A stretch of DNA of 64,000 nucleotides from a virus: the IMG/VR virus record IMGVR_UViG_2900881136_000004, positions 1-64,000 of that record; one strand, 5' to 3'. Positions 27,001 to 30,000 of the stretch are shown here, in pieces. A program made the position numbers. The stretch's first letter is position 1; each line of letters starts with the position of its first letter.

Positions 27001-30000
27001 TTTCGACAATGATCTACTCGCCGCGTGCGCTCGGCCGAACGGGCGTCTCGCTCGAGCTTTCGGGATAATCCTCGCCTATGGCACCACAATCGGAGGCGTA
27101 TGGTTTCTCTGTGCGTCGTACCGGGCTGGCGCCCTGTAATTGCGCTCGCAGAGGCTGGACTCGCAGATCCTCTCCATCTCTTTCGATTTGACAAGTTACC
27201 TCGGCTCCGCGCTCGCCAATCGAGCAATCCAAGCAGCCTCAAGTGCGCGAACAATCGAAACAAATCGCTCGGCCTCATCTGGCGTTGGTCGGCCCTTAAC
27301 AGAATGTGCAGCGCGATTGCGAATCTCGCGAAGTTCTCTCAAGAGCTTTATCTCGTCGTCCGGCACGAGGCACCGAGATTCGAGCTCTCGTAGTACGTCT
27401 TTGCTAATGCTCCCACTGACGATCCGTGCGTCTCTCCCGAGAATTTGAGCCATCTTAAAAAGGTCACCCCCCACCGACGTGAGTTCCTTCCATGCCTCCA
27501 TGATCACGCCAGTCGGGTTCGCATTGAGCGCAATCGGGTCAGGCGTGAATTCGACGCCCCCTTCGCCGATAAAAGTAAGCTCCAATTGCCTTGCTAGATG
27601 TTCTGCGTTTTGCAACGGCGCTTCGAATTTTCCCGATATTCCCCCGGGGAGATTGAACTCCGTCAAATTGCCGAGCAACTCGCGGAATCGGTCGCTGAAC
27701 TTGAACACGAGGATAAGGACGGCCAGCGGCCACGCTGTGGCCTCGATCACCTTGGATACAAATGTCAGCCAGTCCATGTCGCACCCCGTCATCTGATTCT
27801 GTTTGCTGGAAATCCTAGCACGACGCCCCTCCCCATAGCCACGCACATTCCGGCGCTTCGGACGCGTGGCTTTTTGTGACCAACGCAAGCCACACCGCAG
27901 TTCCCCGCCCGCCGCGCGCGGGATTTCCTCTCGGATAAGCGCGGCCTTTCGGCGGGGCGGCCCGTATGCGCGCCCCGCCATTTTTTACCGGAGATACCAA
28001 TCAAAACCGCTTCGAAGCTCATCGTCGCGGCCGTGCTGTTTCTCGTGCTGCTGTCGATCGTCACCCCGTGGCTGATGAATCAGGACAGCAGCATCACCCT
28101 GCTCGCCGTGCCGTTCGTGTGGTTGGCGTATGCCGCCGCCTTTGTGAAATTCATCCCCCCTCATTTCAAGGAGACCAAGTGAAACGCCTGTTTCTGATTC
28201 TGATCCTCGCGCCGACGATGTTCCTCGCGGCCGGCTGCGATAACGTCCCGGCCGGCTACGTCGGTGTGAAGGTGCAACGCTACGGCGACGACCGCGGCGT
28301 CAACGTCGAAGTGAAGGGGCCCGGGCGCTACTTCAACGGGCCCAACGTCGACATGTTCATCTTCCCGACGTTCACGCAGTCCTACGTGTGGGACAAAGCT
28401 GGCAAGTCCGACGAGTCGTTCACGTTCCAGACGGTGGAGGGCCTGTCGGTCAACACCGACATCGGCGTCAGCTACGCGATCCCGCGTGAGAACGCGCCCA
28501 AGGTGTTCCAGAAGTATCGGCGCGGAGTAGATGAGATCACGGGGGTCTACCTGCGCGCGATCGTGCGCGACGCCCTGAATCTCGCCGGCGCGTCGATGGC
28601 GGTCGAGGACGTCTACGGCAGGGGCAAGGCGGCACTACAGCAGCGCGTCGAGGACGAGGTAAAGGCGAACGCCGCGAAGGTCGGAATCAGTGTCGAGAAG
28701 GTCTATTTCGTGAATCAGATGCGCCTCCCCGAGCAGGTCATGAACTCGATCAACGGGAAGATCGCAGCGACGCAGATCGCGCAGCAGAAGGAGAACGAAC
28801 TGCGTGCAGCCGAGGCAGACGCGGCAAAGCAAGTCGCGATCGCCAAGGGCGAGGCCGAAGCGCTCGAGGTGAAAGCGAAAGCACTACGCGAGAACAGCCA
28901 GATCCTGCAACAGATGGCGATCGAGAAATGGGACGGCAAGCTCCCCCAGTACGCGCGCCGCGTGGTGGGCTGGGCGTTTAGTCAGCACGCGGACACCGAC
29001 TTGGCACTAAAGGCATTAAGACGGGCTTACGATCATCGTCGTCCGCCACCAGGCCTGATGTTCCATTCGGATCAGAGCTGCCAATACACGAGCACGCGCT
29101 TTCTCGCCGAGCTGCGCGCCCGTGGCACGATCCAGAGCATGAGTCGGCGCGGCAACTGTTGGGACAACGCGGTGGTCGAGCGCTTCTTCCGAAGCCTCAA
29201 AAATGAATGGATCGGCGACCAGTTGTACGTCGATCACCGCCATGCAGAGCAAGACATCACTGATTATCTAGTCGATTTTTACAACCATCGTCGCCTTCAC
29301 TCGGCTGCGAAGGGACTGCCGCCAGCGCGTTTCGAAGCGCTCGCAGCCTATCCCGGAGCAGTGTCCAAAGTTGCTTGACCACTTCACTTACCCCCATTCG
29401 ATGGGTAGATTGTGTCGGGACGGGGCGGAACGGACAAGAGGATTGACACCCCCAAAACGCCGCCAGATAAGGCGCCTCGGGGGATCTACGAGAATCGAGC
29501 GGAACCGCTCGGAAGGTGTTCTGGCGGAGAGAGGGGGATTCGAACCCCCTCATGCGCTAGACGTGGCGCGGGTTTCCGGCCGATGGCATACCAAAAACGG
29601 ACTAGCCCGCGCCGCCCTTCAATCCCGGCCGTAGCGCCGCCCGCGCCCTTCCCCCTTGCCAACATCCGCGCCACTGCCGCCGGCCGCCCCTGGGCCGATT
29701 CTCGCCCATCCCTGGGCCTTCTCCCTGGTAGACGTTCCCGCTCGAAACCGGCCGCGCCGCGCGTCGACGAATACGACCATTGGTCGTATCCTAGCGCACA
29801 TATCGATGCGACCATTGGTCGTAATGTGAGGGCTCCGGCGTTCGGCATCCTGCCAGAACGCGGAAACCGGAGCAAAGATCATGAGCGGCATGAACGGATG
29901 GAAGAACATGGAAACTTTCGCGGTCGTCAACTTCATAGGCACTGACCCGGAAGACGTGAGCTATTGGACGGCGAGAACGCAAAAGGCGATTGCGCGCGCC

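Follow-up and report, generated by a model that had tools for sequence, protein, structure and literature searches.

A tRNA-Ser(GGA) 3'-end fragment as the probable attR of a 42.9-kb prophage on chromosome 2 of a Burkholderia pseudomallei-group strain

The DNA analysed here is a 64,000-nt stretch of IMG/VR virus record IMGVR_UViG_2900881136_000004 (the window, positions 1 to 64,000), and the element in question is a fragment of a serine tRNA gene at what is very probably one boundary of a prophage. On the minus strand, positions 29549-29522 read GGGGGTTCGAATCCCCCTCTCTCCGCCA, which reproduces the 3' end of tRNA-Ser(GGA) exactly over 28 nt; on the plus strand the region 29500-29560 contains ggtgttcTGGCGGAGAGAGGGGGATTCGAACCCCCtcatgcgct. 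The fragment comprises the 5-bp T stem (GGGGG/CCCCC) and its TTCGAAT loop, the 7-nt acceptor strand TCTCTCC, the discriminator G and the CCA end, and it is identical to the 3'-terminal 28 nt of a complete tRNA-Ser(GGA) of 90 nt located outside the window. With up to 3 mismatches allowed, it was the sole match to the 28-nt core in the window, and 100 shuffles yielded no match. Within the window, neither another copy of the core nor a degenerate relic of it was found at the same tolerance, whether the 28-mer or an 18-mer was used as the query.

Scans for structured RNA gave no sign of a complete tRNA. ARAGORN found no tRNA genes in the window, and an Rfam scan of it returned nothing at the gathering score. 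A permissive Rfam scan placed two sub-threshold matches at the fragment, both resting on the T arm: an alignment to tRNA-Sec over 29524-29610 (16.8 bits, E = 1.4, against a gathering score of 47) and a match to a plastid element which, judged from its consensus, is apparently trnS antisense. The 70 nt upstream of the fragment resemble the 5' part of the tRNA only at the level of chance, with 505 of 1000 shuffles scoring at least as well as the real sequence, and a degenerate tRNA 5' half in the adjoining phage DNA (the P arm) was rejected since its alignment score was no better than that of the shuffles. The absence of a tRNA in the scans and the chance-level similarity upstream therefore indicate a 3' fragment without a 5' half, which does not form the complete cloverleaf above threshold expected of a functional tRNA. 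The first-pass annotation, made from the sequence alone, had described a T arm and acceptor end of a tRNA-Ser lacking its 5' half, and this description holds. The limits it gave, 29523-29558, are slightly displaced: they miss one base, the terminal A of CCA at 29522, and they include nine bases (29550-29558) which are P-arm DNA and not tRNA. In the sequence that it quoted, the GA before GGGGG is likewise not derived from the tRNA, which reads TC there.

The locus beyond the right end of the window was obtained from public assemblies by means of a 197-amino-acid prophage protein encoded near that end. It belongs to CP038806.1, the 3.36-Mb replicon of GCA_004842085.1, and is referred to here as L004. 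Identity between L004 and window 52371-64000 is 100% over 11,630 nt, after which L004 continues past the window end; in all, the window is 100% identical to CP038806.1 across the two stretches compared. An intact tRNA-Ser(GGA) of 90 nt, with the same 28-nt ending, was identified by ARAGORN at L004 458-547, which corresponds to about 72418-72507 in window-equivalent coordinates, and a sodium:solute symporter gene lies upstream of it. The repeat common to the fragment and the intact tRNA locus is 29 bp and not 28, because one base (G) past the CCA is also common to both loci; the copy at the integrase end occupies L004 520-548. At 23 nt past the CCA end, and on the opposite strand to the tRNA, there is a gene for a tyrosine integrase of 417 amino acids (L004 571-1824, window-equivalent 71.1-72.4 kb). 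It has the domains Arm-DNA-bind_2 (75.9 bits), the SAM-like Phage_int_SAM_3 and the Phage_integrase catalytic domain (70.3 bits), and direct reading of the translation reveals the tyrosine-recombinase-type motifs TGLRTSE, TRHTYAS, MGHSD and RIYGRW. The prediction that an intact tRNA-Ser and an integrase would be encountered beyond 64000 was thus correct, the tRNA being about 8.4 kb past the window end in CP038806.1.

Gene calls and Pfam matches, read on the minus strand from the tRNA, give the order integrase, a weak HTH_17 candidate, a YqaJ-type exonuclease, the replication region and RusA, followed by an HNH gene, a DUF4417/ParB_N gene, the small and large terminase subunits, portal and HK97-type capsid, and then by the tape measure, a Phage-tail_3 tip protein, a Glyco_hydro_108 endolysin and a small cargo cassette on the plus strand. 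By the usual convention, attL is the attachment (att) junction next to int. The gene layout corresponds to a complete lambdoid prophage: int is at attL, and the tail, lysis, late and cargo genes are at attR. The coordinates of these and of the other features are given in Table 1.

Table 1. Features in and around the window. Positions are those of the window unless a locus is named; L122 is the window reversed. IS = insertion sequence, ORF = open reading frame,. = no strand assigned.
Feature	Position	Strand	Remarks
attR core	29521..29549	-	29-bp direct repeat: last 28 nt of tRNA-Ser(GGA) plus one G
Prophage body	29550..64000	-	part of the 42.9-kb prophage; about 8.4 kb more beyond the window to the integrase and tRNA-Ser
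P arm (phage DNA abutting the core)	29550..29879	-	holds a candidate arm-type site
Palindrome (T/G)(A/C)GACCATTGGTCGTA, two copies	29772-29788 and 29808-29824	.	operator-like, by direct reading
Three-gene moron-like cassette	29881..30576 (L122 2054-2749)	+	attR-proximal end of the prophage
Glyco_hydro_108 endolysin	31758-32270 (L122 360-872)		Pfam
B' flank of attB	29387..29520	.	134 bp; follows the tRNA-Ser CCA in empty-site strains; 100% identical copy in phage phi644-2
Stanholtvirus (phi1026b/phiE125/phi644-2-like) remnant, early-left region	25414..28948	.	relic of about 4 kb with IS scars
Band_7/prohibitin-IS3 transposase fusion ORF	27966..29378	+	joins the 3' part of an IS3-family transposase at about 28949
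IS3 fragment	23647..23993	-	inverted second copy of 28971-29317; 347 nt, one mismatch
IS debris cluster	22877-24089		includes an IS3 OrfA N-terminal stub (HTH_Tnp_1)
IS110-family Transposase_20 fragment	23219-23629		
rve fragment	23610-24089		
attB junction (empty site)			...gcctatc / core / aacacc...
attL junction (integrase end)			...gcctatc / core / gaaacc...
attR junction (window)			...gcgcatga / core / aacacc...
attP junction, reconstructed			...CTAGCGCATGA / GGGGGTTCGAATCCCCCTCTCTCCGCCAG / GAAACCCTTTAAAATC...
Restored attB junction, expected			...GCCTATC / core / AACACCTTCCGAGC...

The site without the insertion was characterised by comparing ten assemblies at this neighbourhood, anchored on a chromosomal metallophosphoesterase gene (window 21169-22629). 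The tRNA-Ser is unoccupied in five of the ten loci (L119, L120, L124, L125 and L127), where the DNA found to the left of the fragment in the window comes directly after the symporter gene and a complete tRNA-Ser(GGA). In L119, positions 2562-3109 are 99.8% identical to L004 1-548, and positions 3081-21461 agree with L122 at all but 1 of 18,381 nt. The overlap of these two matches is precisely the 29-bp core (L119 3081-3109), and the fragment is therefore taken to be the attR of a prophage whose inserted length is 42,896 bp. L119 contains a single copy of the core, so the second copy arises with the insertion. When the core was aligned with the other prophage boundary an identical sequence was found; the same 28/29-bp core is thus present at both ends, and the empty-site strain splits there, as the proposal of an att core at this position requires.

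The best explanation, to which we assign a probability of about 0.95, is that a lambda-like temperate phage of 42,896 bp inserted in the 3' end of the tRNA-Ser(GGA) gene carried by chromosome 2 in a B. pseudomallei-group strain (CP038806.1), and that the fragment is its junction distal to the integrase (attR). Three elements of this are demonstrated: the core is duplicated exactly, an integrase adjoins the intact tRNA, and a near-identical strain has the precise empty site. The phage attP would have carried a 29-bp copy of the tRNA 3' end, and site-specific recombination by a tyrosine integrase would have exchanged strands inside this 29-bp identity. Such an exchange would rebuild a complete tRNA-Ser beside the integrase (attL, at about 72.4 kb in window-equivalent coordinates) and leave the second core copy at 29521-29549, between the phage P arm and the original downstream flank. 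The adjoining integrase presumably catalysed the integration, and the prophage may still be able to excise. Some points weigh against this explanation. The excisionase candidate is weak, its HTH_17 match of 22.4 bits falling under the cut-off of 27; a search of IMG/VR for its exact attP and attR junctions gave 0 matches for each; and the order of events cannot be read from the junction alone because the flank is itself phage-derived. The fragment had at first been placed at the left end of a prophage, as an attL or attR core. The boundary stands and is refined to attR, with the further difference that the DNA to its left is not plain chromosome but an older phage remnant together with IS fragments.

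This left flank provides the most serious competing explanation, namely that the fragment is the att scar of the older phi644-2/phi1026b-like remnant and that the right-hand prophage is attached elsewhere. In its favour, window 25716-29549 is 96% identical to phi644-2 with the match ending exactly at the core, and the core was named as the candidate attP of phi644-2 by Ronning et al. However, strains which have only the remnant possess one core copy, and that copy is the 3' end of the intact tRNA. The extra copy is seen only with the 42.9-kb insertion, which it bounds, no relic core was detectable at the far end of the remnant at up to 3 mismatches, and a separate core lacking its tRNA and without a prophage was seen in 0 of the 5 unoccupied loci among the 10 examined. 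On these grounds we consider a scar of the left remnant very improbable.

Still less credit can be given to an origin unrelated to phage integration, by decay of a tRNA gene into a pseudogene or by its truncation through the neighbouring IS elements. IS3 and IS110 fragments do lie between 150 bp and 6 kb away, and the faint tRNA-Sec-like alignment might be read as the trace of a former gene, but that alignment falls far below its gathering score, the upstream similarity is at chance level, and the IS homology stops at about 29386, 135 bp short of the core. At a distance of 42.9 kb, moreover, the intact gene occurs together with an integrase and a perfect copy of the 29-bp repeat, and the exact empty-site comparison refutes decay or truncation. 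Chance resemblance to a T arm is no more credible: TTCGAAT loops with G/C stems are common, but the shuffles gave no match even at 3 mismatches, and the identity spans the acceptor, the discriminator and the CCA of one specific partner tRNA, which together refute it.

The attP of the prophage was reconstructed by joining the P arm of the window, the core and the P' arm of L004. Since the integrase carries an arm-binding domain, arm-type sites are expected in attP. The motif TTTTTGGT is present once in the P arm, as GTCCGTTTTTGGT at window 29590-29602, and three times in the P' arm when one variant (TGTTGGT) is counted; the P' arm also has a cluster of overlapping TTGGTCCG repeats. We infer that the TTTTTGGT repeats are candidate arm-type sites of the integrase. 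Both copies of the palindrome listed in Table 1 are upstream of the plus-strand cargo cassette, the three genes of which encode proteins of 112, 64 and 53 amino acids. The second of these is an HTH_31/XRE regulator (30224-30418; HTH_31, 32.7 bits), while the 112-amino-acid protein matched no Pfam family. The cassette could represent a moron with autoregulation or a module resembling toxin-antitoxin systems. Towards the other end of the window, five copies of a 23-nt iteron-like repeat (ATGGTCCGACC-type) occur in two clusters at 63370-63821. They are situated inside the gene at L004 8614-10011 (about window 62954-64351), in the replication region of the prophage, and may mark the phage origin.

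Megablast returned no deposited phage genome resembling the prophage. With window 29400-54000 and L004 548-20594 as queries, no Burkholderia phage was matched beyond the 150-bp flank plus core. For the large terminase the nearest matches are from Vibrio phages, at about 54% identity, and the right-hand prophage has no genome-wide nucleotide similarity that would place it in Stanholtvirus. The results fix the exact boundaries of a 42.9-kb prophage that looks complete and to which no deposited phage genome is closely related. They bring a further occupant to the known tRNA-Ser(GGA)/GI13 hotspot on chromosome 2 of B. pseudomallei, with a textbook attR and no new principle.

Both the tRNA-Ser(GGA) site and the core have already been described, in the literature and annotation on phiBt-TXDOH, phi644-2 and GI13, and the prophage is a new occupant of that site. 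GI13 and GI13.1-13.4 were reported at this tRNA-Ser in all five strains studied by Tuanyok et al. (2008, PMC2612704), where the locus is presented as a hotspot of tRNA site-specific recombination with an island that differs by strain. Ronning et al. (2010, PMC2920897) also located GI13 of strain K96243 at this tRNA-Ser, and proposed the attP of phi644-2 from a 30-bp identity to the tRNA. As published, the K96243 GI13 is a 19-kb prophage-like island with a 14-bp repeat only (PMC2920897, PMC2612704); the element described here shares its tRNA-Ser locus but is a complete-looking 42.9-kb prophage with a 29-bp repeat. Four of the ten assemblies have other occupants at the site (L121, L123, L126 and L128). 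In L128 (CP071525.1), a junction at 3050-3090 has a core of about 17 bp (TCCCCTCTCTCCGCCAG) after a phi644-2-like P-arm segment. L121, L123 and L126 have HigB, Beta_protein and type I restriction-modification specificity genes, and no core was found in them within 10 kb upstream of the anchor.

The collection of representative genome contigs contained no match to the attB flank. The 3' half of the tRNA was matched there in five other Burkholderia species only, in which the downstream DNA is unrelated and has no homologue of the integrase. The representatives of B. pseudomallei, B. mallei and B. thailandensis were not matched, although many assemblies of these species hold the flank and the tRNA half, and they appear to be absent from the collection or masked in it.

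Among isolated phages the best match to the integrase is that of phiBt-TXDOH (OK095358.1), with 55% identity at 92% coverage. That phage is integrated at tRNA-Ser(GGA) on chromosome 2 (2026 paper, PMC13026187); the host group and the target are the same as for the prophage. Its record is annotated 'attP site; 3' end of tRNA-Ser-GGA', with a 30-bp core of which 28 bp are shared with the window, and its integrase gene likewise lies just past the CCA end on the opposite strand. In contrast, there is no nucleotide similarity between the two outside the core, and their P and P' arms are unrelated.

In IMG/VR, the 28-nt core was found in 113 DNA stretches from viral contigs, often at contig ends or twice per contig. 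A homologue of the integrase is present in 19 of the 113, and 11 of these 19 have it no more than 400 bp from the CCA end and on the opposite strand. One contig, IMGVR_UViG_3300045049_000168, at 43,324 bp similar in size to the prophage, encodes an integrase that is 93% identical, 27 bp from the core. It contains both a tRNA-core-P' and a P-core-P' junction, with arms homologous to those of the prophage. The P' arm is 96% identical to that of L004. For the P arm, compared with that of the window, the figure is 84.5% across 142 nt, core included, with the first 110 nt or so conserved and GTCCGTTTTTGGT kept. The P-core-P' junction has the same structure as the attP reconstructed above, and suggests an excised or tandem form. 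It differs from the prophage in its nucleotide identity of about 70-87% (in the parts fetched) and in the variable arm of the host tRNA.

The attachment site of phi644-2 was reread in the same light. Region 30443-31201 of its genome (NC_009235) was compared with window 28949-29549 and with the corresponding loci of phiBt-TXDOH (L129 and L130). The core is the same. On the CCA side, the phi644-2 arm is 100% identical to the window flank for 122 nt (29400-29521), and the next 3.9 kb or so are 96% identical to the left flank of the window in three pieces with partial coverage. The same arm is 98-99.7% identical, for up to 3.7 kb, to the flanks of the strains with an unoccupied tRNA; it is thus the bacterial-flank side of the core. 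The other arm is unlike that of the window prophage; along 190 bp, core included, it shares 95% identity with the P arm of phiBt-TXDOH, with which phi644-2 is collinear elsewhere. One segment of the phiBt-TXDOH record (19367-27356), comprising the integrase together with early-left genes of about 8 kb, is absent from phi644-2, and in its place there are 569 bp of host flank and IS fragment. No homologue of the tyrosine integrase studied here, and no annotated recombinase, was found in phi644-2; its 'gene36 integrase' (gp36) is a fusion of Band_7 with a truncated rve (IS3 transposase). The structure of the phi644-2 site is accordingly P-core-B', which is that of an attR.

We put at about even odds the proposition that the published 'attP' of phi644-2 is an attR-type hybrid of a phage arm and bacterial flank, produced by loop-out of a phiBt-TXDOH-like prophage at the relic. 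On this simplest reading, a prophage of this kind would have integrated at tRNA-Ser(GGA) and later left the chromosome as a loop, through homologous recombination in which its early-left genes paired with the relic, their direct repeat, just past attR. DNA of the host flank would thereby have replaced the integrase and some 8 kb of early-left genes, much as a specialised transducing phage forms, with a resident prophage relic as the driver. If this is right, the hotspot would have beside it a relic that repeatedly gives rise to recombinant phages lacking an integrase. This fixed relic has apparently been copied into an isolated phage, which would change the reading of both the 'integrase' and the 'attP' of phi644-2 and would be relevant to the use or engineering of phi644-2-like phages. 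This reinterpretation is the only part of the present results that might mildly surprise specialists.

The relic itself is tabulated above. Window 25414-28952 is 95-97% identical, over about 3.5 kb, to phi1026b, phiE125 and others, and the remnant is collinear with the prohibitin and neighbouring genes of phiBt-TXDOH, which assigns it to Stanholtvirus. The relic, of about 4 kb, follows the tRNA directly in all five unoccupied loci; it is older than the 42.9-kb insertion or independent of it. No distal core of the relic was detectable in the window (28-mer or 18-mer, up to 3 mismatches). A tandem array of two prophages was also considered and rejected, the ten-locus comparison showing the left element to be a short relic. 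The transposase part of the fusion ORF is truncated, because its rve match begins at position 32 of a 102-position profile; the ORF is homologous to phi644-2 gp36 and does not encode a site-specific integrase. Homology to IS3, judged against a full IS3 copy on a B. latens plasmid, extends from 28949 to about 29386, and since it stops there the 134-bp B' flank was rejected as an IS3 end.

Several further observations concern the DNA to the left of the relic. The segment of about 5 kb between the two IS3 copies has opposite orientations in L119, L122 and L125 and in L120, L124 and L127, as judged from gene order and blast, which points to an inversion polymorphism through homologous recombination between the inverted IS3 fragments. 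A second T-arm-like stretch is present on the minus strand at 24411-24446, where GTGAGTTCGAATCTCAC is followed by CGTGACGCCA, between the IS fragments and the BrnT/BrnA genes; it matched no tRNA model at E values up to 10, and could be a relic att of another element or a product of chance. Farther to the left there is a separate IS3 transposase ORF of 237 amino acids (17520-18233) in a low-GC patch, and beside the island region a plus-strand ORF for a giant protein of 4131 amino acids (4373-16768), for which precomputed annotations give faint Pfam hints of LysM and Big_5 only. The BrnT toxin/BrnA antitoxin pair (24640-25213, minus strand) is at the inner edge of the relic and occupies the same position in all ten loci.

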